From Eubacteriales Family XIII. Incertae Sedis bacterium (GTDB taxonomy: Bacteria > Bacillota > Clostridia > Peptostreptococcales > Anaerovoracaceae), in contig JAIRPC010000011.1 in the NCBI GenBank assembly GCA_031257215.1, positions 1 to 26,147 of the forward strand: 26,147 nucleotides of DNA. Direction: 5' to 3'. Under the pieces are notes generated by a model. That model saw only the letters and a program-made list of their open reading frames with translations, was not told the DNA's origin and did not search any database. Position numbers and translations under genes: made by a program. Shown in pieces: positions 2,395 through 19,190 of this stretch. The stretch's first letter is position 1. The number at the start of each line of letters is the position of its first letter.

Positions 2395-2423
2395 ATATAA
2401 CATATATGAAAACTATGTTATAT
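2395..2423. promoter_or_regulatory. operator, perfect interrupted palindrome ATATAACATA-N9-TATGTTATAT
   Basis: Perfect 10-bp inverted repeat just downstream of the -10 box. Related copies occur at 7674, 11833 and 16020. Confidence 0.75.
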
Positions 2424-2496
2424 GCGGAGCAGGAAGAACAGCTAGAACATGAAGTATAGGGATCACAGGAACAGCAGGTAGAAGGGAAGGTGTATC

Positions 2497-4182
2497 ATGG
2501 AAAACAGATTTTGGGCAAATAGGCGGGGCGAGCTTAGGCTCGCTCGTATCCTTGCGGCGGCACTCGTGGTCGCTCTTGCGCTTGCGCTCGGGTCGTGCAG
2601 CGGCGGAGACAAGGCGCAGGGCGGTGATGGCAGCGCAGGACAGGGCGGTGACGCGGCGGCCGGCGGCACGCAGAATGCCGGTGCGGACGTAGCTGACGGC
2701 GAGCTGGTCATAGGCATCCCAGGGTCGCTTTCGTCGCTCGACGTCAACCAGGAGGCGGGCATCCTGAATTATTATGTGGCCGCCATCGTGAATGAAGGTC
2801 TGGTCAGCATCGGCAACGACGGCAAGGTCATCCCCGCGCTCGCGGAGTCGTGGAGCGACGAGAAAGGCGAGGTCTGGAAGTTCAAGCTGCGCCAGGGCGC
2901 GAAGTTTTCGGATGGCTCGCCCGTGACGGCGGACGATATCATATGGTCTATCGAGCGGGCGCAGGATCCAGAGCGTTCGCCTGGCGTGTCGATATATTTC
3001 CCGGACTATGTTAAGAGCGCGGAGAAAACCGCTGACGATGAGATCACCATCACGCTTGAGGGCTCGCACGGCGGGTTTATCTGGGCGGTGTCCAATTCCG
3101 GCGGGCTTTTTGTCAACAAGAAGGAATGGGGCGAGAAAGCGGAAGCCATCGGTTCGCAGAAAGACTTGCTGCTCGGCAGCGGTCCGTACAAGGCGGTGGA
3201 GTTCGAGCCTGGCTCCCACGCCACATTTGAAGCGTCCGGCACATGGTGGGGCGGAGATGCAAGCATCCCGAAGGTCAGATTCGACTTCATCGAGGACGAT
3301 GCCACGCGCCTGCTCGCGTTCACGCAGGGCGATATAGATTTCGCGCTCAACATTCCCGTAGACCAAGCGGAGCAGTGGGAAAAGGTGGACGGCGCGAAAG
3401 TGGAATACATAGCCGACCGCTCATACTACGGGCTGACCTTCGACCCGAATGTCGAACCCTTTGGCGATGAGCATATCAGGAAAGCTGTCTCATACGCGAT
3501 AAACGCGAAGAGCATAGTGGAGGGAAGCATACTAAAGGGCCGCGGCACGGTGGCTACAGCCATCACTCCGCCAGAGCAGCTCGCCGCCGCGCTGACACTG
3601 GATGCGGCGAAGGAAAAGCTGGGAGGCATCACTCACTACGAATACAGCATTGAAAAGGCGAAAGAGGAATTGGCGCAGTCGAGCCGACCCGATGGGTTTG
3701 AAACCACGCTGTATTATCCGGACACATACCAGAACGCCGGGAAGGCGTCGCTCGTCATCGCCGAGTCTTTGAAAGAGATAGGCATAACGCTGGACGTGAA
3801 AGAGATACCGATCGACCAATGGCTGAACGAGGTCGGCGATGGCAAGCAGGGCGTGGCTTGGATGATATATTTCCCGACCACCGCCGAGCCGGGCGAAATA
3901 GCGGGGTGGCTGCTGGATGCGGAGGGCGCTGGCACGAACCCCGCCAACTGGACTGACGCAGAAGCCGCCAAACTGGCTGCGCGGATACTGGGCGCGGAGT
4001 CCCTCGAAGCCGAAATAGAGCCTACTGTCCAGGCGAACGAAATCGCGCAGAAGCAGGCCATTTATGCCCCGGTGTGGTGGGGTCAGTCAGCCGTGGCATA
4101 CGGCGGTGGCGTGACTGTGGACGGCTACGGGTCGTTCTCGCTCATATCGCAGAACTGGCCACGGCTTTTCTCGCTGGGATGA
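2497..4182 (+). CDS. ABC transporter substrate-binding lipoprotein, family 5 (peptide/nickel; OppA/DppA-like)
   Basis: 561 aa with lipobox LALGS-C, signature VIPALAESW..WKFKLRQGAKFSDGSPVTADD and GSGPYK. Confidence 0.9.
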   Translation: MENRFWANRRGELRLARILAAALVVALALALGSCSGGDKAQGGDGSAGQGGDAAAGGTQNAGADVADGELVIGIPGSLSSLDVNQEAGILNYYVAAIVNEGLVSIGNDGKVIPALAESWSDEKGEVWKFKLRQGAKFSDGSPVTADDIIWSIERAQDPERSPGVSIYFPDYVKSAEKTADDEITITLEGSHGGFIWAVSNSGGLFVNKKEWGEKAEAIGSQKDLLLGSGPYKAVEFEPGSHATFEASGTWWGGDASIPKVRFDFIEDDATRLLAFTQGDIDFALNIPVDQAEQWEKVDGAKVEYIADRSYYGLTFDPNVEPFGDEHIRKAVSYAINAKSIVEGSILKGRGTVATAITPPEQLAAALTLDAAKEKLGGITHYEYSIEKAKEELAQSSRPDGFETTLYYPDTYQNAGKASLVIAESLKEIGITLDVKEIPIDQWLNEVGDGKQGVAWMIYFPTTAEPGEIAGWLLDAEGAGTNPANWTDAEAAKLAARILGAESLEAEIEPTVQANEIAQKQAIYAPVWWGQSAVAYGGGVTVDGYGSFSLISQNWPRLFSLG

Positions 4183-4226
4183 GCCGAGCCAATGCGAAAT
4201 AATTATATGGAATAATTTTCGGGGAA

Positions 4227-5255
4227 TTGTTTGGTATGATAAGGCAGTGGGGTGATGTGAACATTCGCGGAGCGGCTAGGTATATCGCAAAGCGCATAGC
4301 CGAGTTCGCGGTGTCGGTGGTTGCGTTGTCGTTCGTGATATTCTCGTTGCTCTATATCGCGCCCGGCGATCCGGCCAGGTCGCTCGTAGGCACGAGAAAA
4401 GCGACTCCAGAGCTTTTGGCGCGCATTAGGGAGCAGTACCATCTGGACGACCCGTTTCTGTCGCAGTACGGCAGGTGGCTTGAGGGGGCTTTTCATTTTG
4501 ACTTCGGCGAATCCATCAGGTCTGGGGCATCCGTGTCTGACACGATAGCGCCCCATGCGGTGGTCACGTTCGAGCTGGTTCTCATATCGCTCGCGATCAG
4601 CGCGGTGGTCGGCGTGGCCTGCGGCATCGCGGCGGCCAAGGGCAGGGGGAGGTTGCGCGATGGCGCTATCACGGTCGCTGCGCTCGTCGGTACGAGTGCG
4701 CCGAGCTACGCGGCGGGGCTGGTGTTCCTCTATGTGTTCGCTCTGAAGCTTGGCCTGTTCCCTATCTACGGGATAGGGAACGGGAGCGCGGCAGATGAGC
4801 TGTGGCATCTGGCGTTGCCCGCAGTCACCCTGGCCTTCGGCGTGGGTGCGCTTCTCGTGCAGATAACGCGGTCGGCCATGTTGAAAGAAGCGGCGAGCGA
4901 TTACACCGTATTCATGCGGGCTCGGGCGATATCGCCTCTGCGCGTCACGGCAGCGCAGATGAAAAACGCTTCGCCCGCCATCCTGACGAGCGCGGGGCTG
5001 GTGCTGGCGGGGTTGTTCGGATCGACCGTCCTTGTCGAGAGCGTGTTCTCGATACCCGGGCTGGGAAATCTGCTTGCCTCGTCCGTGACGTTCCACGACG
5101 TGCCTGTGGTGCAGGCCATCGCGCTGCTTTTGGCTGTCTTTATCTGCGCCGCATCCACTGCGGTGGATATCTGTGTCTACCTGATAAACCCCTCTTGGGT
5201 GCAGCGGCACGGGGTGAGGTGGAAAGGGGGCCGGCATGAGCGCATCCACGCCTAG
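4227..5255 (+). CDS. ABC transporter permease (DppB/OppB-like); start uncertain (4227 TTG, 4236 ATG or 4257 GTG)
   Basis: PGDPA motif, YHLDDPFLSQYGRWL, DFGES, EAA-loop region 'RSAMLKEAASDYTVFMRARAIS' and hydrophobic TM segments. Confidence 0.88.
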   Translation: MFGMIRQWGDVNIRGAARYIAKRIAEFAVSVVALSFVIFSLLYIAPGDPARSLVGTRKATPELLARIREQYHLDDPFLSQYGRWLEGAFHFDFGESIRSGASVSDTIAPHAVVTFELVLISLAISAVVGVACGIAAAKGRGRLRDGAITVAALVGTSAPSYAAGLVFLYVFALKLGLFPIYGIGNGSAADELWHLALPAVTLAFGVGALLVQITRSAMLKEAASDYTVFMRARAISPLRVTAAQMKNASPAILTSAGLVLAGLFGSTVLVESVFSIPGLGNLLASSVTFHDVPVVQAIALLLAVFICAASTAVDICVYLINPSWVQRHGVRWKGGRHERIHA

Positions 5256-6066
5256 GCTGCGGCAAGGCGCGACGCTGGCCTCGGCGGGATTCTGTATTTC
5301 GCTTGGCATCCTCGCGGTCGTTCTGGCATTTGTCCTGTTCCCCGAAGCTTTTGCGCCGAACGCGCTGGCACAGGATGTGGCGCATGGTGGCCTGCCCGCG
5401 CTCTCCTCAGGCCATCCCCTCGGCACGGATGCCCTAGGGCGTGATGTCTTGAAGCTGCTTATCGCGGGCTCGCGCAGTGCGCTCGCCGGCCCGCTTGCCA
5501 TCGCCGCCGGCTCTATGGCGATAGGGCTTCTGCTAGGTGGGATAGCCGGATGGTACGGCGGCGCGGCAGACTGGATCATATCCAGATACGCGGATCTTAC
5601 GCTGTCCATGCCGTCGCTGCTGCTCGCTATCGTCGCGGCAGGCATCATCGGCGGTGGTTACTGGGTCAGCGTTTTGATAATGGTCATCCTCTATTCGCCG
5701 TTCGACATCAGGCTGGTCAGATCGGCGGTCATGCAACAGAAAGGTATGGCGTACATAGAGTCAGCGCGGCTGCTCGGGCTAGGTGCGCGGCGCATACTGG
5801 TGCGCCACATATTCCCCAATGTGACGCTTGTCATATTTGTGAATTTCTTCCTGAACATAGCGTACGGACTCGTTTCCATGTCCTCTCTATCGTACCTCGG
5901 CCTCGGCGTGTCCCCAGGCGCGGCTGACTGGGGTCGGCAGATATCGGACGGACGCGCGTTGCTGTTCGACAATCCGGCCTGTGCGCTCAGCGCTGGCGCG
6001 GCAATAATAATAACAGCGGTTGCGGTGAATATGGTGGGAAGACAAATAATGGAGAGAAGCCTGTGA
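5236..6066 (+). CDS. ABC transporter permease (DppC/OppC-like)
   Basis: HPLGTDALGRD, EAA motif YIESARLLG, LSYLGLGV..ADWG. Overlaps the upstream permease. Confidence 0.9.
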   Translation: MSASTPRLRQGATLASAGFCISLGILAVVLAFVLFPEAFAPNALAQDVAHGGLPALSSGHPLGTDALGRDVLKLLIAGSRSALAGPLAIAAGSMAIGLLLGGIAGWYGGAADWIISRYADLTLSMPSLLLAIVAAGIIGGGYWVSVLIMVILYSPFDIRLVRSAVMQQKGMAYIESARLLGLGARRILVRHIFPNVTLVIFVNFFLNIAYGLVSMSSLSYLGLGVSPGAADWGRQISDGRALLFDNPACALSAGAAIIITAVAVNMVGRQIMERSL

Positions 6067-7541
6067 TAAATCTGTCGGTGAAAAACTTAAAGGTGGGAAT
6101 TGGCGGTGCTGATATACTGGACGTGCCGGCATTTTGTATCGGAGGCATTGCCGAACATGCGCCGCGCATCGGCATAGTCGGTGAGTCTGGCAGCGGCAAG
6201 ACCATGCTCGTCAGGTCGCTCATGGGCCTGCTGCCGGCTGGCGTATCCGTCAGCGGCAGCTATGCGATAGACGGGATTGGTTTTAGCCTGAACGCCAAGG
6301 AGCGGGAGTGGCGTGGAGTCAGGGGGGCGCGGCTCGGTATGGTCATGCAGGATCCGTTCACGGCGCTTGACCCGCTAAAAAAATGCGGTCGGCAGATATT
6401 GGATGGCGTTCCGAAAAGCTCGCGGGCTTCGTTCGACACGCGGGCCGCTCTCGCCGAGGTCGGGCTTGCGGCGGACATCGCGGGCAGATACCCCCGAGAG
6501 CTTTCGGGCGGGCAGCGGCAGCGCGTGGTCATCGCCGCCGCGCTTGCCACGGAGCCGCAGCTTCTTATCGCGGACGAAGCCACCACCGCGCTTGACGTTA
6601 TTACACAAAAGGGCATACTCGACCTGCTTGACGAAATCAGGGAAAGGCGCTCCATGCCGTTCGTGCTTATCACGCACAATATCAGGCTGGTTTATCAGCG
6701 GACGGATATGCTCATCGTGATGGACGGGGGGCGCATCGTGGAGACTGGCCCGACTCGCGAGGTGATAGCGGATCCGCAGAGCGCATATACCCGCGCACTC
6801 ATCGAGGAGGACAGGCTCCTGCGCGTGAGCGCATACCCCGAATACCGTGTAGGCGGGCCCGTAATACTGAAAGTGCAGAACGTGGAGAAAAGCTTCGGCG
6901 CAGTCAAGGCGCTGCGCCGCGTGGACATAGAGGTATGTGAGGGCGAGATAGTTGGCATAGTCGGCGAGTCGGGCAGCGGCAAGACCACGCTGGCGCGAAT
7001 CGTGGCGGGGCTTGAGAGCGCCGACGGTGGCGATGTGAAATTCTTCGCTGAGGGGACTCCTAAGATCGTGTTCCAGGATCCGTATTCGTCGCTGAACCCC
7101 GCGCACACCGTGCGCTTCGCGATAGAGGAAGCTCTGGCGGCTTTCGGAAGGCCGCTGTCGGAGCTTTCGGAGATAATGGATCTGACCGAGTTGGATGATT
7201 CACTGCTGGATCGCAGGCCCGCAAAGCTATCTGGCGGCCAGCGTCAGCGCGTGGCCATCGCGCGCGCCCTCGCGACTCACCCGAGCCTCATCGTCTTCGA
7301 CGAATCCGTGTCCGCGCTCGACATCGCGACGCAGAACAGGATACTTGGCATGATAGAGCGGCTGCGCGGCGAACGGCAGCTCGCCGTGCTGTTCATCACG
7401 CACGACCTCTCGGTGGTGCGGATGCTCGCGGGCAGGATCTACGTGATGCACGAGGGGCGTATCGTGGATTCAGGCTCGGCCGAGCATATCTTCGAGGATT
7501 CAAAAGCGGGGTACACGAGGGCCTTGGTAAGTGCGTCGTAG
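6063..7541 (+). CDS. ABC transporter ATP-binding protein with two fused NBDs (DppD/F-like)
   Basis: Two Walker A (GESGSGKT), two signatures (LSGGQRQR), two Walker B (LIADE, IVFDE) and two ITH H-loops. Start overlaps the previous stop (GTGA). Confidence 0.92.
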   Translation: MINLSVKNLKVGIGGADILDVPAFCIGGIAEHAPRIGIVGESGSGKTMLVRSLMGLLPAGVSVSGSYAIDGIGFSLNAKEREWRGVRGARLGMVMQDPFTALDPLKKCGRQILDGVPKSSRASFDTRAALAEVGLAADIAGRYPRELSGGQRQRVVIAAALATEPQLLIADEATTALDVITQKGILDLLDEIRERRSMPFVLITHNIRLVYQRTDMLIVMDGGRIVETGPTREVIADPQSAYTRALIEEDRLLRVSAYPEYRVGGPVILKVQNVEKSFGAVKALRRVDIEVCEGEIVGIVGESGSGKTTLARIVAGLESADGGDVKFFAEGTPKIVFQDPYSSLNPAHTVRFAIEEALAAFGRPLSELSEIMDLTELDDSLLDRRPAKLSGGQRQRVAIARALATHPSLIVFDESVSALDIATQNRILGMIERLRGERQLAVLFITHDLSVVRMLAGRIYVMHEGRIVDSGSAEHIFEDSKAGYTRALVSAS

Positions 7542-7629
7542 GTGGCGGCGATTGCCTGCATCGAAGCCGCCGACTCCATTTTTTCGGGCCATTTCCAATA
7601 AACATTAAAAGGAAACTTAAAAAACATGC

Positions 7630-7658
7630 TTGACATATATGCAAACCTGTGATATAAA
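7630..7658 (+). promoter_or_regulatory. sigmaA promoter (copy 1 of a triplicated promoter cassette)
   Basis: TTGACA, 17 bp, TATAAA with extended TG. Sequence TTGACATATATGCAAACCTGTGATATAAA. Confidence 0.8.
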
Positions 7659-7673
7659 TTACTAGAATATATG

Positions 7674-7700
7674 TATAACATATATGTGAAGTATGTTTTG
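7674..7700. promoter_or_regulatory. operator copy (TATAACATA-tatgtgaag-TATGTTTTG)
   Basis: Same half-site and 9-bp spacer as 2396-2422, 15 nt after the -10 box. Confidence 0.7.
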
Positions 7701-7762
7701 CGAGAAAGGGGTTTGCGGATGGCTGTACGAAAATTAGAGATTCCCATATACGGACGATGTAC

Positions 7763-7804
7763 AATCCCGCCGAGCCAGGGCTGATGTCCTGGCGCGGCGG
7801 GTTT
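7763..7804 (+). other. strong GC hairpin in the 5' leader (possible attenuator or terminator)
   Basis: CCCGCCG(7766-72)/CGGCGGG(7795-7801) plus GCCAGG/CCTGGC, followed by TTTGCCGATTTT. Confidence 0.4.
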
Positions 7805-7837
7805 GCCGATTTTGCACAGCCGTCGGCTGACGAAGCA

Positions 7838-7985
7838 AATCAGTTATCGCAGGCGAATAAATAAGAAGGAACGGCTCAACTCCGACATGCAATCAGGTGA
7901 ACCGTTCCAGCGCAGCCCTAAGACCGCATAATCATTATAGCATAATTTTGCTTGTATGCGGTCTCGGGAAAGAAAGGAGAACGAC
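7838..7985 (+). ncRNA. candidate structured cis-regulatory 5' leader, copy A
   Basis: Aligns with 11937-12087 and has two conserved stems with a compensatory change. Not matched by eye to any known riboswitch class. Confidence 0.5.
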
Positions 7986-10900
7986 ATGCAAGCTATTTTT
8001 TCAGAAACCAGAAATAAAAGGGCGCGGATGATAGTGGCGGGCGCACTCACCGTCGCGTTGCTCCTGACCGGCGTGCCGATAGTCGGCTGGCTGGGCGCAC
8101 AGGACGGCTCGGGAGACTCGGCTGTCTACGCGCAGGGTTTGGAGGCGGGCGAAACCAATGACTCCACGCAAGCTGCCGCGGCAGCCAAGACAGAGATAGA
8201 CTATCTGGGAGATACCTATCAGCTGCCTGCCGGCCATGTATTCACTAACATTACGACCGAGCGCCTGAGCTTCCTGCTCGGCTACACTGCCACAAACTCC
8301 GCAAACGCCAACACCGATGCGGCCTACGATCCGAGCGGAAACTACGCGTTCGTGTTCGGTGGTCCCGAGAACGCCAGCTCGCTTGCGGCCGTGCCGCTCA
8401 TAGGCGAGGTCGCGAAGGAGTACGGCGTGGAAACCGTATACCACTACGACCCGAAGCTCGATGGCGATAAGCTCGACATCACGGGCGCGAATCCTGCGGT
8501 GGCGTCTGCATTCACCGACCTGTGGTCCGGCGCGCGCGGCATCAAGACCAGGCTGAAGGGCGGTGTTGACCCTGCGTATACATCGTCCGACACCTATTTC
8601 TTCATCTATAACAAGAACAGGGTGGCGGATACGGACAACGATTCGGATACGCCAGACGTTTCGGCGCCGGTCGTGGCAGGCGTGCTGTCCAAGGCGCAGG
8701 CCATAGGCCAGACGCAGGCGATTAATTACAAGCAGAATATAGCCGCGGCGTTCGAAGCGGCGGGCGTCGATCCCGTGACGAACAAGGCCAACGTGAAGAC
8801 CTATCCGTTCTTCGATTATTTCAAGACTAGGATAAACGCAGTCGTCGGCTCGCCAACGACATACGCAAATGTGATAATACCCGAATCGGCCCGCGAAACT
8901 TTTGCCATACAGACCGTGACGCTGCCCGAGCTGTTCCATATCTTCGAGAGCGAGGGCGACTACGCGATTTTCCTCGGCGGCACATGGTGCCCGTACACGA
9001 GCCCCACGGACAACATCGCCAACACCGCGGCGGTGACGAATGGTGTCCGCAAGGTCTACCAGTTCGATCTGCGGCTTGACGGCGCGACATCGGCCACGGG
9101 CCTGAAGACCGTGTTCAAGTCCGGCGATACAGAAGCCGAAGACCCGCGCATCAACGGAAATACAGTAGTGGAAGGCAGTCATCTGTATGGAAAACTGCTC
9201 GACTATCTCTCAAATCTGGAACTGGAGCCTGGCGTTGTCGAATACCTCTATTACCCGAACGGCGACACATCGAAGCCGGTGAGCGAGAAGAAAGCCGCAA
9301 AGAACATCGGCGTGCCATTCTTGTTCGAGTACAACAAGGACAACAAAGCCGCGGATGGCACAGCCGCGCCCGTGGCCAGCGAATGGATAGGCTATAAGCC
9401 GCTGAAAAAAGAGCTGTACGCATATGCCTGGTACACGAAGAACAATGTGCGTGACTACTTGAACGATGCGGGATATTACGAGAAGCAGCTGGGCCGCCCC
9501 GTGAATCCCGATGTGGATGATACCGAGGGCAACGGCGCGGTAAGCGCTTCGCTCGCGCTGCCGGGGCTCTACACGTTCTTTGATGGACTGAACAGAAACC
9601 GCACGGATTCCGACCCATGGGCGGAAAACCCGGGCGCCAGGCCAAGCCCGTCGGGTACGCCCGAACCGAGCGGCGGCTGTGGCTCGGATGTAAAGGAAAT
9701 CCTCCTCGGAGTCGAGAATCCGATTCTTGGCCAGAACGGCAACGACGGTTACGATGTCCAGCACTACGATATCGATGCCGCATACAAGGAAGCTCTGAAC
9801 GCCACTCCGTCCGCGTTGCGCGCGAACCTGCACGCGGAAACGAAGATAACGGCGAAGGCCACGAAGAGCCTCAGCAAGATAGAGTTCGACTTCCGCGCCG
9901 ACGCTGACCGCGCAGATGTGGGCAGCGTGAAGCTGAACGGTGTCGATGTAGACAAGGCGGCGGTGACGTCCGTCAGCGACGATGCGGCCGACAGGCACAA
10001 GCTCGTCATAACGCCCGAGACCGCCATCGCAAGCGGCAGCACGTTCACGGTGGATATTGTTTATTGGGTGAAAACCGGCACATACAAATTCAATGGCGCT
10101 TCCACGCAGGGATTTGTGCCTAGTGCGAACGGCACGGGCGCAACCGCGCTCGGCGAGCCGAACGGAGCCACCTTCTGGTTTCCATCCAACAACAATACAA
10201 CGGACAGAGCCACGTACACCATCTCGCTGACCGCGCCTCGAAATCTTGTCGGCGTCAGCGTCGGAAATCTGATATCCAAGCAGTCGCACGGCTCGGATAT
10301 CACGAGGGTCTGGGAGCAGACGCAACCCACGATACCATACCTGGTCGATGCGTCGTTTGGCGACTATATCGAGTTCAGCGACGAGATAGAGCTGATAGAC
10401 GGGACGAAGATACCCGCCTACGGCTACGTGGACAAATCCCTCTATAACAGCAGCAACACGAATAAGCGGCGGGCATATTGGTACGCGAAGGACTTGCAGG
10501 AGTACATCAACTGGGCCGAGAGCCATTTCGGAAAATACCCGGGCGAATCGGCGGGCTTCGTGTTCGAAAACCTGAAGGACGGCGATGACGGCGTGGGCTA
10601 CAGCCTTGAGACTGTCGGGCGCCCGTATTACAGCGGCATTCCGGCTACGTCAACCTTCGTACACGAGCAGCTGCACCAGTGGTTCGGCGACTCGGTGACC
10701 ATCGCGAAATGGGAAGACCTGTGGCTGAACGAGGGCTTCGCGTCGTTCCTGTCCAACATATGGTTCGAGGAAAACGGCGTGCGCCCGAGCGGTTTCGGCG
10801 CCGGCACTACCACGAACGACTGGTATGCAAGATGGTACGAGGACAACAAGGATTCGGATTTCTGGTATATCGCGCCGGCTGATCCGATAAACGCCGCCAA

Positions 10901-11732
10901 CCTGTTCACTGACATCACCTATGGGCGCGGGAGTTATGCGCTCGCGGCGTTGCGCGTGGCGGTGGGAGATGAAGATTTCTTTAACATTGTCAAGACCTGG
11001 GCGGATGAGCAGGCAGGAAAGGCCGCGACCACCGCGCAGTTCATTGAGACCGCGAAGCGCGTGTCGGGTGTCGAGCAAACCGCGCTGGACACGTTGCTGC
11101 AAAGGTATATCTACGACCAGTACAAGCCTGAGAGCTTCCCCGCAGGGCGGCTGCCTGACGCGCCGACAGAGCCTGGCGACGACCAGACTGGCACAGACGA
11201 CGACAAGGTGGGCGATAAGCAGCAGGTTTCCGCCAAGTCCATAGGCGGCGCACGGATAGCGGCGATCGCCAACCAGATCTACAAGGGCAAGGCTATCAGG
11301 CCCGCAGTCAGCGTTGCTCTGGACGGAACTATTCTCGCGCCCGCTGAATACACCGTGTCATACAAGTCCAATACGGGCATCGGGCTGGCATCCGTCACGG
11401 TCACGGGCAAGGGCGCGTACAAGGACAGCGTGACCGCAACATTCAAGATACTGCCCGCCAAGGCGAAATTCAAGAGCGCGAAGGCTGGCAAGGGCAGGGT
11501 GGCGCTGAAATGGTCGAAAGCCAAGGGTGTAACGAAGCAGCAGATACAGTATCGGATCAAGGGCAAGCCATGGAATACCAAAACGGTTTCGGGCGCGACG
11601 GCATCCAAGGCCATCAGCAAGCTGAAAAAGGGCAAGACATACCAGTTCCGCGTCCGCGGGTACAAGGCCACATCCGGGCTCAAATACTTCGCGTCATGGA
11701 GCAGCATTAAAACGGTAAAGGTGAAAAAATAA
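7986..11732 (+). CDS. secreted multidomain protein: tandem thioredoxin-like region + M1 family Zn aminopeptidase + Ig/MBG-like + FN3-like C-terminal modules
   Basis: RBS AAAGGAG before ATG 7986 (the ORF track start at 7956 is upstream of the RBS). Signal peptide, GGTWCPYT, HEQLHQWFG-x-WLNEGFAS (HExxH-x18-E), catalytic-Tyr region TYGRG, Lys-rich FN3-like tail KWSKAKG..YQFRVRGYK. Confidence 0.85.
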   Translation: MQAIFSETRNKRARMIVAGALTVALLLTGVPIVGWLGAQDGSGDSAVYAQGLEAGETNDSTQAAAAAKTEIDYLGDTYQLPAGHVFTNITTERLSFLLGYTATNSANANTDAAYDPSGNYAFVFGGPENASSLAAVPLIGEVAKEYGVETVYHYDPKLDGDKLDITGANPAVASAFTDLWSGARGIKTRLKGGVDPAYTSSDTYFFIYNKNRVADTDNDSDTPDVSAPVVAGVLSKAQAIGQTQAINYKQNIAAAFEAAGVDPVTNKANVKTYPFFDYFKTRINAVVGSPTTYANVIIPESARETFAIQTVTLPELFHIFESEGDYAIFLGGTWCPYTSPTDNIANTAAVTNGVRKVYQFDLRLDGATSATGLKTVFKSGDTEAEDPRINGNTVVEGSHLYGKLLDYLSNLELEPGVVEYLYYPNGDTSKPVSEKKAAKNIGVPFLFEYNKDNKAADGTAAPVASEWIGYKPLKKELYAYAWYTKNNVRDYLNDAGYYEKQLGRPVNPDVDDTEGNGAVSASLALPGLYTFFDGLNRNRTDSDPWAENPGARPSPSGTPEPSGGCGSDVKEILLGVENPILGQNGNDGYDVQHYDIDAAYKEALNATPSALRANLHAETKITAKATKSLSKIEFDFRADADRADVGSVKLNGVDVDKAAVTSVSDDAADRHKLVITPETAIASGSTFTVDIVYWVKTGTYKFNGASTQGFVPSANGTGATALGEPNGATFWFPSNNNTTDRATYTISLTAPRNLVGVSVGNLISKQSHGSDITRVWEQTQPTIPYLVDASFGDYIEFSDEIELIDGTKIPAYGYVDKSLYNSSNTNKRRAYWYAKDLQEYINWAESHFGKYPGESAGFVFENLKDGDDGVGYSLETVGRPYYSGIPATSTFVHEQLHQWFGDSVTIAKWEDLWLNEGFASFLSNIWFEENGVRPSGFGAGTTTNDWYARWYEDNKDSDFWYIAPADPINAANLFTDITYGRGSYALAALRVAVGDEDFFNIVKTWADEQAGKAATTAQFIETAKRVSGVEQTALDTLLQRYIYDQYKPESFPAGRLPDAPTEPGDDQTGTDDDKVGDKQQVSAKSIGGARIAAIANQIYKGKAIRPAVSVALDGTILAPAEYTVSYKSNTGIGLASVTVTGKGAYKDSVTATFKILPAKAKFKSAKAGKGRVALKWSKAKGVTKQQIQYRIKGKPWNTKTVSGATASKAISKLKKGKTYQFRVRGYKATSGLKYFASWSSIKTVKVKK
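11214..11732 (+). repeat. C-terminal module duplicated collinearly at 15265-15783
   Basis: Both copies are 519 nt with no indels. The core 11367-11567 vs 15418-15618 encodes 64/67 identical residues. Confidence 0.85.
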
Positions 11733-11784
11733 TGAAAAACAGGAAATAAATACAGCGGCATGAAAACCTGGCCTGCACACCCAC

Positions 11785-11813
11785 TTGACATATATGCGAA
11801 CCTGTGATATAAA
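11785..11813 (+). promoter_or_regulatory. sigmaA promoter (cassette copy 2)
   Basis: TTGACATATATGCGAACCTGTGATATAAA, one mismatch to copy 1. Confidence 0.8.
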
Positions 11814-11832
11814 ATAACGGAAAGGTATCTTG

Positions 11833-11859
11833 TATCACATATATGTTAAGTATGTATTA
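11833..11859. promoter_or_regulatory. operator copy (TATCACATA-tatgttaag-TATGTATTA)
   Basis: Same motif and spacing, 19 nt after the -10 box. Confidence 0.7.
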
Positions 11860-11936
11860 TGGAAAGGGTGGTTCGGTTATGCGATGTTTTTTATCAATCG
11901 GTTATAGCTGACGGGTAGTCAGACAGACGGACAGTC

Positions 11937-12087
11937 AATCAGTTGTCGCAGGCAGATCAAACAAATAGGGAACGGCTCAACCCCGACGTGCAATCAGTGT
12001 GAGCCGCTCCGCCGCAGCCCGTGGGCCGCATACATATTATAGCATAATTCGGCTTGTATGCGGCTTCGGGAAAGAAAGGAGAACGAC
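11937..12087 (+). ncRNA. candidate structured cis-regulatory 5' leader, copy B
   Basis: Homologous to 7838-7985. Stems GGA(A)CGGCTCA/TGAGCCG(C)TCC and GGGCCGCATAC/GTATGCGGCTT. Confidence 0.5.
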
Positions 12088-15000
12088 ATGCAGGCTATTT
12101 TTATTGGAAGAAAGAGGGTTAGGGCGCTGCTCGCCTCCGCGCTGGCTTTGGCGCTGGCTGTTACCGGCATATTCGCCGCCGCGCCGTCGGCTTCGGCAGC
12201 CAGCCCCGCAGCACCGCAGGCTTCGGCAGAGGGTGCCGCTGGGGCTTCGGCCGCGCCGTCGGAGGATTATTCCCCGTCCAGCACCACGGACTATATCGCC
12301 GCCAAATTCGACGGGATCAGCGCGAACGCGCACGTGTTCGACGTTGTGACGGTGGAGCGGCTGACCAAGGGCGTGCTCGGGCAGGACGGCAACAGCGTCG
12401 TGGTGCTCGGCAGCCCGAAGAACGACAGCACGAAGAAATCGCTGCGCTATATCAATGACGTGGCGCAGGCCTGGGGCATCGAGAAGATCTATTTCTTTGA
12501 CCCGAACCTCGCGGGCGAGGCGGGCGCGGACATCACGGACGCGTCGACGGGCGCACCCTATGCGGCGCGGACGGACAGCCCGAACAACCGCATCTGGGCG
12601 GCTCTGAAAACCGCCGTCACCACCGGCACGGACAATCTCAGGGGCGCGCGCTTGAAGCATATACCCGCGGGTTACACCTCCGACCAGACGCTCCTGTTCG
12701 TGTATAACAGGAAGCCGTCTGGCGCTATCGTGGACAGCGCGGACACTATCGTGTCGAGCCTGCTCATACCCGGCGCGGTGGACGTGGGCAGCACGGCCGC
12801 GCAGAACGCTTTGAAGTCCGATATAGCGGCGGTGTTTTCCGCTGTTCCCGGCTGGACATCGGGGAACACAGGCGAAACCTTCTACGACCAATACTGGTGG
12901 TTTCGGAATGTCTGGACGTACTCCTCGGGCAGCATTGACGGAATAACACAGAGCAAATTCACGGTGAGGCAGGTCACCCAGCCTGAGCTGGTGAACGTGC
13001 TGAACACGCCGGGCACGCACAATGTGTTCATCAGCGGCTCCTGGTGCGGGGACTCGCGGGCACTCACGGCATATCTGGCGGAGAACGCCAGCAAGGCGAA
13101 CGAGCCTGTCTATGTGTTCGACTTCCGCGTCAGCGGCGGCATCGGCGACAGCTCCGCCTATTCCGTGCTGCGCTCAGAGGCACCCACCTCCGATGGCGGC
13201 TATGGCTACACGGGGCTGGGCTTTATCGGCGCTCGGCTCGTGGATCTGTTCGCGCCGTTTGAAAGCGGCACGGTGAACACGGTTTCCAAATACTATCCGA
13301 ACGGCGACAGCTCGGCGCAGCTGGCCACTAGCCCGAACCGCAATTTCCGTTCGCCATTCCTCGTGAAATACCAGAAAGGCAATAACAGCAGCAAGGGGAG
13401 CGTTGTTAAGGAATGGGTACACCAGACGCAGGAATGGGAAGCGCCGTGGAAGTCCGCCGCAGGATATGAGGGCGGGCAGCTCCCAGGCACCTACCTGGAC
13501 TACGAGGTGGCTACGGGAGGCACGAACCAGCTCCAAAACGCGAGGGCTCGTTATGCCCTGGCGGAATTTTTCGGGCAGCCTAGCGTGCATAGCCTCAGCG
13601 GTTATTCGCCGTCAAGCACCGTGGGCACGAATGTCAGCAAGAGCGACAGCGGCTGTGGAGACGACAACGACCCGCTCGACGATCTCGGCGAGAGCAGGCT
13701 CATCCCGAACCAGGGCACGTCGGACTATGATGTCCAGAGCTACGACATAGCCATCGACGCGTCGAGCATTGCGGCGTCCTCGGACGATGTCGATTTCATC
13801 AAGGGCGCAACGACCGTTACCGCTATCGCGAAGAAGGGCCTTTCGCATATCGAGCTGGACTTCAAGCCGCTTGCGGTGAACGGCGGGGAGCTGCGGGTCA
13901 ATGTGGGCAGCATAGACGAGAGCGGCGCGTTCGTGGCGTCGGGCTCGCGCACCGTTACGCATTTTTCGCAGGCGAGCAATGACGCTGAGGATTTGCAGAA
14001 GCTGGCGCTCGACGTGAACTCGCCTATCGCGAGCGGCACGCCGTTCCAGATATTTGTTTCATACACCACGGGGCTGCTCGACACGTTTGTCGGCAACGGC
14101 GAATCGCCGCAGGGCTTCTTTTCGCGAATCGACGAGGGAGGGATCGCCGCTATCGGCGAGCCGCTCGGCGCCATCTACTGGTTCCCGAACAACAACACGC
14201 CCGCCGACGGCGCGAAATACGCGATCACTCTGAAATACCCGTCAGGCTACGAGGGCGTCGCGCCGGGCGTCCGCACATCCAGGAGCGGCACCCAGTCCGT
14301 GTGGAAGGTCAACAGGGATATCGCGTCGTACCAGGCGTTCGCGTCGATAGGGAAATACACCATAGTCGGCGGCACGGGCAATAACTATCTGTCAATAACA
14401 GCGCCTACGGCGTACACGCAAACCGTGAACAACGGCAACAACCCCGACAATTTGGACGAGAAGAAAATCAACAAGGCCATCCCGTACTACAATTACGTCA
14501 ACAGCACGATCTACGCCGCGAACGCCAGCCGCAACCGCGACAAGGCCGACGCGTTCACGCACGAGCTGCCGCTGTATATCCGCGCGCTTGAAAGCATCGC
14601 GGGCCCATACCCCGGCGAGGCGGCGGGGTTCGTCTTTGACAACCTGGGGGATGGCCACGGCTCGCCCGCCTCGTGGGGCGCGGTCGAAACGGCTGACCGC
14701 CCGTTCTTCACGGGCACGAATATCACGAGCGAACGCACCTTTGTACACGAGTACGCGCACCAGTGGTACGGCGATGCGGTCCGCATAGCGGGCTGGGAAG
14801 ACCTCTGGCTGAACGAGGGCTTCGCCACCTATGTTACCGACCTGTATTACGAGCAGAAGCCCGGCTCGGAGTTTTCCGCGCAGGAGAAATGGGAGAATGT
14901 CTACAACAGCACCGCCGCGAACAAGCCGTGGTGGGGCTACGCGCCCGCGAAGATCGAGACTGAGGGCGATCTGTTCGGCGGGGCTTCCGCCGCGTACAAC

Positions 15001-15783
15001 AGGGGTGCGCTCGCCCTCGCCGCCCTGCGCGCCGAGATAGGTGACGCGAAATTCCTGAAAATCCTGAAAGACTGGCCGACGGAGAAAAAAGGGCAGGCGG
15101 TAACTACGGCTGACTTCGTGGCGTTTGCCGCCGCCAGCGCGGGGCAGGACCTGACCGACTGGGCGGACGCGTGGCTCTACGGGCAGGCGAAGCCCGCCGC
15201 GTTCATAACGAGCGATATCCCGAAGGATCCAGGCAAGGGCGACGACAAGCCAGGCGGCAATGATGACAAGCAGCAGATCACAGCGAAGTCCATCTCCGGC
15301 GCGAGGATAGCCGCTATCAAAGACCAGATCTATAATGGCAAGGCGGCCATCCCCGCTGTCAAGGTCACGCTGAACGGCGCGGCGCTCACGGCGGCCGACT
15401 ATGCGCTGACGTACCGCTCCAACACGGGCATAGGGCTGGCGTCCGTCACGGCTACGGGCAAGGGCGCGTACAAGGACAGCGTGACCGCGACGTTCAAGAT
15501 ACTGCCCGCCAAGGCGAAGCTCAAGAGCGCGAAGGCCGGCAAGGGCAGGGTGACGCTGAAATGGTCGAAAGCCAAGGGCGTCACGAAGCAGCAGATCCAG
15601 TACCGCATCAAGGGCAAGGCGTGGAAGAGCATAACGGTTTCAGGCGCGGCGGTGTCCAAGGTAGTGAAGAAGCTGAAAAAGGGCAAGACCTACCAGTTCC
15701 GCATCCGGGGCTACAAGAAGGCCGGAAGCGAGAAATACCAAGCGGCATGGAGCGGCATCAAGACGGTGAAGGTGAGGAAGTAA
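12088..15783 (+). CDS. secreted multidomain protein: tandem thioredoxin-like region + M1 family Zn aminopeptidase + Ig/MBG-like + FN3-like modules (paralogue of 7986..11732)
   Basis: RBS AAAGGAG before ATG 12088. Signal peptide, SGSWCGDS, HEYAHQWYG..WLNEGFAT, AYNRG and the same C-terminal modules. Confidence 0.85.
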   Translation: MQAIFIGRKRVRALLASALALALAVTGIFAAAPSASAASPAAPQASAEGAAGASAAPSEDYSPSSTTDYIAAKFDGISANAHVFDVVTVERLTKGVLGQDGNSVVVLGSPKNDSTKKSLRYINDVAQAWGIEKIYFFDPNLAGEAGADITDASTGAPYAARTDSPNNRIWAALKTAVTTGTDNLRGARLKHIPAGYTSDQTLLFVYNRKPSGAIVDSADTIVSSLLIPGAVDVGSTAAQNALKSDIAAVFSAVPGWTSGNTGETFYDQYWWFRNVWTYSSGSIDGITQSKFTVRQVTQPELVNVLNTPGTHNVFISGSWCGDSRALTAYLAENASKANEPVYVFDFRVSGGIGDSSAYSVLRSEAPTSDGGYGYTGLGFIGARLVDLFAPFESGTVNTVSKYYPNGDSSAQLATSPNRNFRSPFLVKYQKGNNSSKGSVVKEWVHQTQEWEAPWKSAAGYEGGQLPGTYLDYEVATGGTNQLQNARARYALAEFFGQPSVHSLSGYSPSSTVGTNVSKSDSGCGDDNDPLDDLGESRLIPNQGTSDYDVQSYDIAIDASSIAASSDDVDFIKGATTVTAIAKKGLSHIELDFKPLAVNGGELRVNVGSIDESGAFVASGSRTVTHFSQASNDAEDLQKLALDVNSPIASGTPFQIFVSYTTGLLDTFVGNGESPQGFFSRIDEGGIAAIGEPLGAIYWFPNNNTPADGAKYAITLKYPSGYEGVAPGVRTSRSGTQSVWKVNRDIASYQAFASIGKYTIVGGTGNNYLSITAPTAYTQTVNNGNNPDNLDEKKINKAIPYYNYVNSTIYAANASRNRDKADAFTHELPLYIRALESIAGPYPGEAAGFVFDNLGDGHGSPASWGAVETADRPFFTGTNITSERTFVHEYAHQWYGDAVRIAGWEDLWLNEGFATYVTDLYYEQKPGSEFSAQEKWENVYNSTAANKPWWGYAPAKIETEGDLFGGASAAYNRGALALAALRAEIGDAKFLKILKDWPTEKKGQAVTTADFVAFAAASAGQDLTDWADAWLYGQAKPAAFITSDIPKDPGKGDDKPGGNDDKQQITAKSISGARIAAIKDQIYNGKAAIPAVKVTLNGAALTAADYALTYRSNTGIGLASVTATGKGAYKDSVTATFKILPAKAKLKSAKAGKGRVTLKWSKAKGVTKQQIQYRIKGKAWKSITVSGAAVSKVVKKLKKGKTYQFRIRGYKKAGSEKYQAAWSGIKTVKVRK

Positions 15784-15852
15784 GAAAAACGCATCAGCGG
15801 AATCCGCAATGGCGCGGGCGCGCCACCCTTCACCGACATGTGTGAGCCAACC

Positions 15853-15940
15853 CTCGTCATTGCGGGCCGTCGCAAGCGCCGCCGCAATCCAGAGACACGC
15901 GACAGCGCTGGATTGCTTCGCCTTACGGCTCGCAATGGCG
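15853..15940. repeat. REP-like palindromic element (GTCATTGCG...GCAATCC..GGATTGC...CGCAATGGC)
   Basis: Nested inverted repeats. 39 bp (15853-15891) are identical to 24603-24641. Confidence 0.7.
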
Positions 15941-15973
15941 TCGGAAAAAATTTTAATTATTTTCATAACATTC

Positions 15974-16002
15974 TTGACATATATGCGAACCTGTGATATA
16001 AA
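15974..16002 (+). promoter_or_regulatory. sigmaA promoter (cassette copy 3)
   Basis: TTGACATATATGCGAACCTGTGATATAAA, identical to copy 2. Confidence 0.8.
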
Positions 16003-16019
16003 TATCATTGAAGTTCGTA

Positions 16020-16046
16020 TATAACATATATGCGAAGTATGTATTA
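16020..16046. promoter_or_regulatory. operator copy (TATAACATA-tatgcgaag-TATGTATTA)
   Basis: Same motif, 17 nt after the -10 box and adjacent to RBS GAGGAG. Confidence 0.7.
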
Positions 16047-16060
16047 GAGAGGAGAACGAA

Positions 16061-18370
16061 ATGCAGGTTAACTACTATAATAATAGAGGGCAGAGGGGCG
16101 CGTTGGCGGCTGTGCTGGCTTTGGCGCTGATCGCCGCCTCGGTGCTCGCGCCCGGCGCACCGTCCTGGCTGCCCTTTGCGGCGAGCGAGTCCCATGCCGC
16201 CAGCGGGTCCGGTATCGCCGCGCCCTATCCGTGGAGCAAGACGGCTGCGGCTACGACGGGCGACTATATCGCGGACGTATATAGCGGCATATCCAAGGGC
16301 GGGCATGTGTTTGAGGACGTGACGGTGGACAGGCTTGCCGACGTTCTCAGCGCGGAGGGCGACTACTATGTCGTGTTCGCAAGCCCCATCAAGGACACGG
16401 CGCAGAGGGTGCTTGCCACCATCAACGAGCAGGCCAAGGCGGCGGGCGTCACGAAGATCTACCATTTCAACCCCGTCCTAGACAACAAATACCTCGACAT
16501 CACAAGCGCGGACCCGAGCATAGCGAGCCTGGGCGTGAGCACCACGACAAACTACGCCAACGCGACCAATGCGCCAGCAGGCGCGGCAACCCTGGAACAC
16601 CGCATAGGCACGATCCAAACCTATATCAATTATTTCTTCCCCAACGACGAGGCGGGCGATATCCTCCGCGCCTACAAGTCCTCGAACACGCTGCTGTTCC
16701 GCTTCCATAAGGGCAGCCACACCGATCTGGCGTCCGAGGCCGCCATCAGCGCGACATATCAGCTCAAACCCGCCGATATCGTCGGGGGTTACAGCAAGGC
16801 GGCGCAGGCGGCGAAGATCGCGGGCGTGTTCAGGGACAGCGAGGGCGCTATCGTCAAGGGCGATGTCCGCACGGACTACGATTTCTTCGAGCGCGCGTAC
16901 AGGGGCCAGCTCCCCGGCGAGGATGCCATCTCGGATGCGAATTTCACGAGCGGCGCGGGCTTCAATGTCAAGTCGCTGACCTTCCCCGCCGCGTTCGACC
17001 TGCTGAACTCCCCCGGCGAGCACGCCATATTCTTCGGAGAGGTGGGCTGCGGCAACACGAAAGCGACTCTTGGCTGGGCGGCGAAGCGCGCGAAGGCCTA
17101 TAACAGGACGATATACTTCGTCGACGGCTCGCTCGGCGGCTCGGTGCGCTTCAAATACGGGGAAGATATAGACGCGCAGCTCGCGCAGACCTCGAACGCC
17201 TGGATCAACATCCGCCTTGGGCAGCGCACCAACGGCGCTGTGCCGTCGGGCTACGCGGGCGTCGGGCATCTCTACGGCGCGCTGTTCAGCTATTTCGGCA
17301 GCGGCATCAACACGGAGGACTGGTCGCAGAGCGGGCGGTCCGTGTTCTATTACGAGAACGGCATCAATGCCGACACAGGCACGCCGACGAACCGCGCATA
17401 CGGCACAGGCGCTTCGGAGGCGGGGCCCTTCGACGCGCCGCGCTTCCAGTACCCGTTCCTGTTGTCCTACAACAAGGGCTTCGACCAGCCTGTCACGGTT
17501 TCGACCACCGCCATCCAGTGGGGCGAACAGAACGGTGCGCCGTGGCTGACCGAGTATATGCTCGGCGTGAGCCAGGTGAACGCGATCCACGCGTACGGGT
17601 GGCAGCTTGGGGACGCCGTTCCCGTCACCATTGCGGGCATAACAAACGCGTCCACCGCCAAGCTCCATTTCGACGGGCTTACAGACTATGACAGGATATT
17701 GAATCCCGCATACATCAAGTCGGTGCGCCAGGCCCAGGCGGCGGACGAGGGCATAGAATACGACGATGGAACTGGCGACAACAATAACAATAACAACGAC
17801 ACGGTTCAGTCGGGTGCGCCGAAGGCCTTTGCCACAGCGCCCGCGCCGAGCCTCGTCGGGGAGGCCGTGGTCGGCAACACCCTGGGCGTCAAGGCGGGCG
17901 CGTGGAGCGACAGCCCCGCACTCAGCTACCAATGGTACCGCGAGGGCATTGCGGTGGCGGGCGCGACAGGCTCGATCTACACGCTGTCAAAGCGGGATAT
18001 CGGCAAGCTGATACAGGTCGCGGTCAAGGCCACAAAGGCCGGCTTCCAGACAACTGAGCGTATCTCCAAGGTCAGCGCATCGGCCCGAGCCAAAGGCCTG
18101 TTCGCGGGAATTACTTCAAATTCTGCCAAAATAACCGGAACGGCTAAGGTGGGCAAGACGCTGAAAGCCAAGGTGGTCGGGGTTTCCCCGAGGTTCACCG
18201 CCAAATACAGGTGGTACGCGAACGGCAAGGCCATCAAGGGCGCGACCAAGGCGAGCTTGAAGCTGAAAAAATCGCTGAAAGGCAAAAAAATCACGGTCAC
18301 AGCGACATTGAGCAGAGCGAACTATGTGAAAGCAACCGTTGTTTCCAAGGCAAAGAGGGTGAAGAAATGA
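16061..18370 (+). CDS. secreted tandem thioredoxin-like protein with two C-terminal Ig-like (QWY..G..I.GAT) repeats; no peptidase domain
   Basis: Signal peptide and blocks homologous to the M1 fusions (KIYHFNPVLD, FGEVGCGNT, YYENG, QYPFLLSYNK). Poly-Asn linker and Lys-rich repeats. Confidence 0.75.
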   Translation: MQVNYYNNRGQRGALAAVLALALIAASVLAPGAPSWLPFAASESHAASGSGIAAPYPWSKTAAATTGDYIADVYSGISKGGHVFEDVTVDRLADVLSAEGDYYVVFASPIKDTAQRVLATINEQAKAAGVTKIYHFNPVLDNKYLDITSADPSIASLGVSTTTNYANATNAPAGAATLEHRIGTIQTYINYFFPNDEAGDILRAYKSSNTLLFRFHKGSHTDLASEAAISATYQLKPADIVGGYSKAAQAAKIAGVFRDSEGAIVKGDVRTDYDFFERAYRGQLPGEDAISDANFTSGAGFNVKSLTFPAAFDLLNSPGEHAIFFGEVGCGNTKATLGWAAKRAKAYNRTIYFVDGSLGGSVRFKYGEDIDAQLAQTSNAWINIRLGQRTNGAVPSGYAGVGHLYGALFSYFGSGINTEDWSQSGRSVFYYENGINADTGTPTNRAYGTGASEAGPFDAPRFQYPFLLSYNKGFDQPVTVSTTAIQWGEQNGAPWLTEYMLGVSQVNAIHAYGWQLGDAVPVTIAGITNASTAKLHFDGLTDYDRILNPAYIKSVRQAQAADEGIEYDDGTGDNNNNNNDTVQSGAPKAFATAPAPSLVGEAVVGNTLGVKAGAWSDSPALSYQWYREGIAVAGATGSIYTLSKRDIGKLIQVAVKATKAGFQTTERISKVSASARAKGLFAGITSNSAKITGTAKVGKTLKAKVVGVSPRFTAKYRWYANGKAIKGATKASLKLKKSLKGKKITVTATLSRANYVKATVVSKAKRVKK

Positions 18371-19149: not shown

Positions 19150-19190
19150 ATGGAAGTTATAGGTTGAAGAATGCGAGGTTGGTGAACATT

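Follow-up and report, generated by a model that had tools for sequence, protein, structure and literature searches.

Four predicted promoters in a stretch of DNA from a termite-gut bacterium share an interrupted palindrome, ACATA-N9-TATGT. This box is most probably read by a CymR-like protein of the Rrf2 family, and the genes behind it would constitute a clostridial sulfur regulon of the CymR type. The stretch (hereafter the window) is the 26,147-nt contig C14 (JAIRPC010000011.1) of a Family XIII metagenome-assembled genome (MAG) of 1.1 Mb, G000, which is 58% complete and has a G+C content of 58%. It was compared with a relative from the window's genus (G004, JAIRPQ01) and with further genomes of the family, among them G005, G002 and G098. 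Six public sequencing runs contain at least part of the stretch and one of them, a termite-gut metagenome, contains nearly all of it and may be the source; no RNA run is listed among these six.

The box and its promoters in the window

An earlier reading of the window, made from its letters alone (the sequence-only reading), had described a 9-N9-9 palindrome at four positions. The 27-mer TATAACATA-N9-TATGTTATA indeed matches at 2396 (no mismatch), 7674 and 16020 (two mismatches each) and 11833 (three), and it has no match in 100 dinucleotide-preserving shuffles. The four sites stand, whereas the nine-base arms were overstated: only the inner ACATA-N9-TATGT is invariant, the outer arms vary with no compensating changes, and the conserved unit is two arms of five bases around an asymmetric spacer. 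The conservation of that spacer was correctly seen, as all four (TATGAAAAC, TATGTGAAG, TATGTTAAG and TATGCGAAG) agree with a common reading TATGNNAAS. A fifth match to the 27-mer, at 11808 with three mismatches, overlaps a -10 box and was discarded as a spurious chance overlap.

The predicted promoters and operators, and the genes that follow them, are these:

2356-2384, +: predicted promoter of the opp operon (-35 box TTGACA at 2356-2361, 17-nt spacer, -10 box TAGAAT at 2379-2384; 11 of 12 matches)
2396-2422, +: predicted operator 1, the sole perfect 9-N9-9 palindrome (core 2400-2418; 37.0 bits)
2497-7541, +: ATP-binding cassette (ABC) importer of the Opp/Dpp type (Pfam)
2497-4182, +: SBP_bac_5 binding protein of the importer (Pfam)
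4227-5255 and 5236-6066, +: its two permeases (Pfam)
6063-7541, +: its fused double ATPase (Pfam)
7630-7658, +: predicted promoter of M1 peptidase A (TTGACA, 17 nt, TG-n-TATAAA)
7674-7700, +: predicted operator 2 (core 7678-7696; 36.9 bits)
7986-11732, +: secreted M1-family peptidase A with fn3 (Pfam)
11785-11813, +: predicted promoter of M1 peptidase B, near-identical to 7630-7658, with a partial box at 11788
11833-11859, +: predicted operator 3 (core 11837-11855; 35.0 bits)
12088-15783, +: secreted M1-family peptidase B, a paralog of A (Pfam)
15974-16002, +: predicted promoter of the gene row 16061-22667, of the M1-promoter type, with a partial box at 15977 (23.6 bits in an alternative register)
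16020-16046, +: predicted operator 4 (core 16024-16042; 15 nt before the start codon region; 34.7 bits)
16061-22667, +: gene row with secreted proteins of unassigned function (16061-18370 and 18954-21308), then an SDF-family symporter (21309-22667)

Measured from the predicted -10 boxes, operators 1 to 4 lie 11, 15, 19 and 17 nt downstream, within the range of 11-19 nt given by the sequence-only reading. The three promoters other than that of opp have the form TTGACA-17-TATAAA preceded by TG and are near-identical over 29 nt; they are absent from the promoter-scan listing, the last base of the second hexamer being A and not T. The opp promoter is kept at its ortholog in G004, where operator 1 is also present (L010) with one uncompensated change, and the core of operator 2 is identical at its ortholog in the same genome (L002).

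The motif ACATATATG occurs seven times on the forward strand (2400, 7633, 7678, 11788, 11837, 15977 and 16024) against 0.07 expected, and two additional minus-strand matches merely reflect the palindrome ACATATATGT. The count of seven is thus as first reported, but the three copies embedded in promoters are partial sites only: they score 14-24 bits in their best register, and in two cases this register runs over the -35 box, for example at the copy at 7633 in the promoter of M1 peptidase A (alternative register 7624-7642, minus strand, 23.6 bits). These partial copies may be auxiliary sites. In each of the three promoters the full and the partial site are 45, 49 and 47 bp apart, respectively, and since these distances are out of helical phase we propose no looping.

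Genes behind the box in the genome and its relatives

A weight matrix built from 20 box sites was used to scan the whole MAG with a threshold of at least 12 bits. The scan gave 78 matches against 0-6 in five mononucleotide shuffles, and all matches above 28 bits stand before genes, namely the four window sites and one site each on contigs C139, C59 and C87. The C59 box precedes metY-patB, which encode an O-acetylhomoserine/O-acetylserine sulfhydrylase (TIGR01326, 499 bits) followed by a PatB C-S lyase (TIGR04350, 423 bits), and the C87 box precedes metN, encoding a MetN-like ATPase. The best box of the genome (C139:219-241, 37.4 bits) stands before the gene of a 300-aa class-II amidotransferase-like GATase_4 protein (Pfam, 73 bits), for which no match was found among the NCBIfam models and which, as a guess, could be a gamma-glutamyl-peptide hydrolase. 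cysE has a weaker site within its promoter spacer, and so does an Rrf2 gene that is located at the end of contig C62. At cysE (C74; match 1501-1980) the weak box, CATAT-N7-GTATA with 22 bits, overlaps the predicted -10 box at about 1360-1390. The cysE leader (about 1390-1445) carries a terminator-like hairpin after the box, and this arrangement of box and hairpin is conserved in G004.

In G004, boxes precede the opp and M1 genes, cysK (TIGR01139, 453 bits), metY and the GATase_4 gene (L065). Other genera of the family, G005 included, have a more symmetric form, ACATATAT-N3-ATATATGT, before metQ, metY and cysK, and also before genes for a DUF2292 (YezD/OscA-like) protein, a ferredoxin-domain protein and NifB/NifH-like proteins. 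The cysK promoters of 19 genomes were compared: 18 carry CATATA-type repeats from a few to about 20 bases past the -10 box, the exception being G126, where the box is found about 250 bp upstream. A loose family-wide scan with ACATATATGNNAA was uninformative, its matches being about as common as those of the reversed control in most genomes.

The box thus recurs on other contigs and in relatives before sulfur amino-acid genes, which bears out the earlier claim that a shared operator defines a regulon. That regulon had been called unassigned; judged by the genes behind the box, it can now be assigned to cysteine and methionine, that is to sulfur acquisition, and the CymR family was already on the list of regulators proposed for comparison. 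The window adds to this picture the symporter at 21309-22667 (Pfam SDF, 304.8 bits). It resembles TcyP, a transporter of cystine, and the Atlas clusters nearest to it bear the name 'putative L-cystine uptake protein TcyP' (score 0.97); we take this naming as a lead only. From the abutting open reading frames, the row 16061-22667 is probably co-transcribed.

In several relatives the box precedes a nitrogenase-like locus with NifH-like, NifB-like and two Oxidored_nitro genes, behind which come an NMT1/Ssu-type ABC transporter and often a DUF2292 gene. An example is G197:C107:9000-21000 (L260), with the box near 2504 and the genes at 2848-10927; others are G005:C151 (L261), L067, L101 and L103. 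By their gene content these boxed loci resemble the sulfur-salvage systems of the group IV nitrogenase-like and methylthio-alkane reductase kind.

No SAM-I riboswitch was found in G000, G002, G004 and G005, all of them incomplete genomes, and G098 has one. Since metY, metN and metQ carry the protein operator and the riboswitch was not found, the control of methionine genes in this lineage may have shifted from RNA to a repressor.

A promoter designed like those of the window's M1 genes was seen in another genus (G098:C49:1-1720, L096), before the gene of an unrelated secreted protein of more than 449 aa. Its -35 box is fused to ACATATAT..CTATGG, and two overlapping boxes follow past the -10 box. 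The layout that overlaps the -35 box may therefore recur and not be just a relic of duplication.

The candidate regulator and competing readings

No DNA-binding family was found among the main open reading frames of the window, in agreement with the earlier proposal that the regulator acts in trans. Another contig, C62, carries at its end the start of the likely regulator gene. The candidate is best seen in G004, where the boxed promoter of cysK has an Rrf2 gene 2.2 kb upstream (gene order Rrf2-mnmA-larE-like-cysK). Its product (on contig C12) has 148 residues and no cysteines, and matches PF02082 with 90.7 bits and the Rrf2 superfamily model TIGR00738 with 96.2 bits (cut-off 73.3). Its best solved relative is CymR of Staphylococcus aureus (3t8r, E 5.7e-18).

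The occurrence of the box follows that of this protein. In a comparison of 251 family genomes, in which the symmetric box was searched with the reversed pattern as a control and totals were tallied by hand, 24 genomes have an ortholog (at least 49% identity, E ≤3e-40); the next best match has 42% identity, and the search is bimodal. In these 24 genomes the symmetric box has 44 matches and its reversed control 2; in the remaining 226 the figures are about 38 and about 60. The Rrf2 gene adjoins cysK, in divergent or tandem orientation, in G266, G065, G104, G167 and G098, and lies within 2-5 kb of it in G004, G002 and G005. About two-thirds of the 24 orthologs have CATA-N9-TATG upstream of the regulator's own gene. 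In the window's genus, G000 included, this box sits inside the -35/-10 spacer of the Rrf2 promoter with its right half overlapping the -10 hexamer, and in five genera it lies just upstream of the -35 box. In G000 the gene is cut by the assembly: the very end of C62 carries the same genus-type promoter with its box and the first ten codons (MRISVKGRYA), and for this reason we consider that the regulator exists in this genome.

The association extends beyond the family. A wider scan used a protein alignment as query and one genome per species; the box was counted at named loci from the best 80 of at least 566 relatives, which belong to Clostridia and Negativicutes and include Thermoclostridium caenicola, Selenomonas sputigena, Sporobacter termitidis, Anaerotaenia torta and Clostridium uliginosum. 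CATAT-N7-ATATG (at most one mismatch) was present within 250 nt upstream of the gene at 54 of these 80 loci, against 3 for the reversed pattern and 1 in shuffled sequence. cysK is usually adjacent, and among the named loci that show cysK on the fetched stretch most have it next to the Rrf2 gene. The consensus of the box in these wide relatives is about CATATATGTTTAATATG, and from this the asymmetric spacer, with ATG on the left and an A-rich right side, is an old feature of the box.

The proposed regulation would work as follows. When sulfur is plentiful, a dimer of the Rrf2 protein would sit on ACATA-N9-TATGT just past the -10 box, and on the weaker partial sites of the -35/-10 region, and block RNA polymerase. 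When cysteine is scarce the repressor would leave, and the Opp-like importer, the two secreted M1 aminopeptidases, the surface proteins and the TcyP-like cystine symporter would be switched on, together with metY-patB, metN and the class-II amidotransferase gene; in relatives the same switch would act on cysK, metQ and the nitrogenase-like sulfur-salvage genes. The sequences themselves show the sites, the genes behind them, their conservation and the association of box and regulator gene; DNA binding, the direction of control and the CysK step described next are what we infer. Repression is argued from the position of the box, which is either just past the core promoter or over it.

If Bacillus and Staphylococcus are a guide, O-acetylserine is the probable signal. 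The C-terminal tail of the repressor would dock in the active site of CysK, the complex would hold DNA more tightly, and O-acetylserine would displace the tail. The CymR pentapeptide of S. aureus, YMFYI, enters the active site of CysK and competes there with O-acetylserine, binding with nanomolar affinity (bioRxiv 10.1101/2024.09.19.614015). A conserved tail that resembles this pentapeptide is also seen here. Its form is [FY]M[LM][NG][LMI] in the present family; members from the window's genus end in YAQGI or FASGI, and homologs from wider Clostridia in xMF[FY]I. G000 has cysE and can thus make O-acetylserine. A complex prediction for CysK and the Rrf2 protein scored 0.14, below the mark; it gives no verdict and is used neither way.

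Several points weigh against the proposed reading. The protein reaches 88.3 bits with the CymR equivalog model NF047409, well short of the cut-off of 195, and nearly the same score with the IscR model (87.3 bits, cut-off 207.55); with both scores near-equal and below cut-off, the placement with CymR is not given by sequence alone. Most family orthologs end in Met or Leu, whereas the CysK-docking tails that have been studied end in Ile. The Bacillus CymR site is a 27-bp non-palindromic consensus, unlike the present box. Neither the full regulator gene nor cysK was found in the 58%-complete MAG. In the window's genus the box always has one orientation with respect to its gene, and a purely symmetric dimer site would not require this. 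Promoters as well as transcription starts are predicted, and A is the last base in three of the four -10 hexamers. Finally, the genomes compared are related to one another, so that the counts above overstate independence and no probability can be derived from them.

Among the alternatives, the one that fares best, although still improbable, is that the box is read by another factor, of the MarR, PadR or LysR family (the last such as the CmbR/MetR type), and that the Rrf2 gene is merely a member of the regulon. A site on the Rrf2 promoter would be equally expected of a plain target gene, ATA-N9-TAT fits the loose T-N11-A rule of LysR sites, and a MarR-family gene is found in the box-controlled DUF2292 operon of G005. 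However, the sites are found past the core promoter or over it and not at the -65/-35 positions usual for LysR activators, and the enrichment of the box tracks the Rrf2 ortholog, with a box upstream of that very gene at the 54 loci. The MarR protein of G005 was considered as the reader and rejected: it has no ortholog in the box-bearing G004, G002 and G098, and only relatives of 31-35% identity in G049 and G212. The consensuses of Fur, Zur, Rex, CcpA, CodY, NrdR, CopY/BlaI and PadR do not fit the box, on informal comparison.

A second alternative, which we hold to be less probable, is that the element works at the RNA level, as a 5'-terminal hairpin of the mRNA whose role would be to stabilise the transcript or to bind a protein or a ligand. 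All four copies are gene-oriented and would be transcribed if the predicted promoters are right, and the copy at 2392-2426 folds to -7 kcal/mol (z -3.5). The other three copies do no better than shuffles (z -1.8, +0.1 and -1.5; overall -4 to -7 kcal/mol), and for the one at 16016 another hairpin is the favoured fold. Moreover, the changes in the outer arms are uncompensated in the window and in G004, the would-be loop is as conserved as the stem, copies stand in untranscribed places such as -35/-10 spacers or upstream of -35 boxes, and no Rfam match was found, even at E ≤1.

It is slightly less probable again that the Rrf2 protein binds the box but activates some or all of the promoters, or that the true promoters lie elsewhere, the inference of a repressor position then being wrong. 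The transcription starts are predicted only, and in the five genera with the box just upstream of -35 on the regulator's promoter it occupies a position that activators also use; IscR, a relative within Rrf2, both activates and represses. Yet in many genomes the boxes at cysK, opp, metY, metQ and GATase_4 either stand a few to about 20 bases past a near-consensus -10 box or span the core promoter. Such a geometry is that of a classical repressor and matches Bacillus CymR, which is a repressor (PMC3828012). The least probable alternative, that the similarity is a by-product of recent duplication of a promoter cassette with no regulatory role, would account for the three near-identical promoters and the two paralogous M1 genes, but the stretch from -10 box to operator has fully diverged among the three copies with the box kept, the unrelated opp promoter has the best box of the window, and the box is found on four other contigs and before unrelated sulfur genes in other genera.

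Relation to known systems and minor observations

CymR is a repressor in Bacillus, and in B. subtilis it targets tcyP and cysK (PMC3828012); in S. aureus its regulon contains gisABCD-ggt, a peptide-type ABC importer for glutathione, and metNPQ homologs (PMC13689551). The CymR-like circuit proposed here shares with the CymR-CysK systems of these bacteria a cluster-less Rrf2 repressor of about 140-150 residues that has a conserved hydrophobic C-terminal pentapeptide and is tied to cysK. Also common to both, here as predictions, are operators over or just past the core promoter and targets such as cysK, a TcyP-like symporter, a methionine ABC transporter, a peptide-type ABC importer and C-S lyases. 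The cymR gene of B. subtilis is also followed by mnmA/trmU, like the gene in G004. The present system differs in its operator, an AT palindrome that can be written 5-N9-5 or 8-N3-8 (CATAT-N7-ATATG), in the mostly Met- or Leu-ended tail and the low equivalog score already mentioned, and in a regulon that adds secreted M1 aminopeptidases and unassigned surface proteins and, in relatives, nitrogenase-like genes. We regard the protein as the clostridial counterpart of CymR. The kind of circuit is already known, and the new part consists of the different operator sequence and some unusual targets.

With IscR of Proteobacteria and Gram-positive bacteria the protein shares the fold, a similar length and the near-equal hidden Markov model score, and the two systems have in common, here by prediction, palindromic operators of about 25 bp and regulation of their own gene. 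In contrast to IscR, it lacks the three cysteines that bind the cluster (19 of the 24 orthologs are free of cysteine, and no cysteine position is conserved), its gene is linked not to iscSU or suf but to mnmA, a larE-like gene and cysK, and its targets are genes for uptake and synthesis of sulfur amino acids. A second Rrf2 paralog with a cysteine cluster and no box upstream was found in G001:C175, G002:C55, G004:C8 and G005:C22 (L057-L060); it is likely of the iron-sulfur type and, from its sequence, a better IscR-like candidate. The regulon also resembles that of CodY in lactic acid bacteria, a nutritional repressor that couples opp and pep genes to amino-acid supply. CodY differs in protein family, in signal (branched-chain amino acids and GTP) and in its box, AATTTTCWGAAAATT, the present coupling being to sulfur amino acids.

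In Clostridia, sulfur regulation has mostly been credited to S-box and T-box RNAs; an Rrf2 gene was noted beside cysK in C. acetobutylicum, an Rrf2 gene of C. perfringens was found to be induced when cysteine is limiting, and what the cysK-adjacent gene does was left open (PMC2940859, PMC3828012). In the literature searched for the motif string and for Rrf2/cysK/Clostridia regulons we found no published description of this box and no precedent for secreted M1 aminopeptidases in a CymR-type regulon, and recent publications on nitrogenase-like sulfur-salvage systems, as far as checked, do not mention CymR or Rrf2. Tentatively, and with somewhat less than even confidence, we suggest that CATAT-N7-ATATG is a deeply conserved, undescribed 'clostridial CymR box' that ranges from Family XIII as far as Negativicutes and differs from the site used in Bacillales. 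It would have recruited an extracellular peptide-scavenging module (the secreted M1 aminopeptidases, the Opp-like importer and the TcyP-like symporter) in termite-gut Family XIII, and in relatives nitrogenase-like organosulfur salvage of the kind to which methylthio-alkane reductases belong.

If this is true, extracellular proteolysis would be governed by cysteine supply and not by general amino-acid status, and these termite-gut bacteria would be predicted to answer a shortage of cysteine by harvesting peptides outside the cell. The recruitment of the Opp-like and M1 peptidase genes is the less ordinary part of the regulon. A defined box would also allow sulfur regulons to be read directly from genomes and MAGs of gut anaerobes. 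It would tie the surface proteins of 769 and 784 aa, the GATase_4 protein, DUF2292 and the ferredoxin-domain protein to sulfur acquisition, and it offers a candidate regulator for the clostridial nitrogenase-like salvage systems.

Some features of the window lie outside this argument. Two open reading frames upstream of the opp promoter, at 233-1630 (465 aa) and 1673-2359 (228 aa), have no Pfam match. The M1 peptidases A and B have about 1250 aa each; the reading frame of A is listed from 7956, and its likely start is the ATG at 7986, preceded by a GGAG ribosome-binding site. Their leaders, at 7700-7985 and 11860-12087, are long (about 290 and 230 nt) and similar to each other. No Rfam match was found over the whole window at gathering scores, nor over 7600-12100 at E values up to 1. 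Both leaders share two hairpins just before the ribosome-binding site, one of which has an A-T to G-C pair change between the copies, and the first leader has in addition, at about 7765-7815, a hairpin rich in G+C with a T-rich run behind it. Short upstream reading frames, each with a Cys codon, are found in both (e.g. 7719-7784 and 11879-11911). The M1 leaders may represent a second, attenuation-like layer of control.

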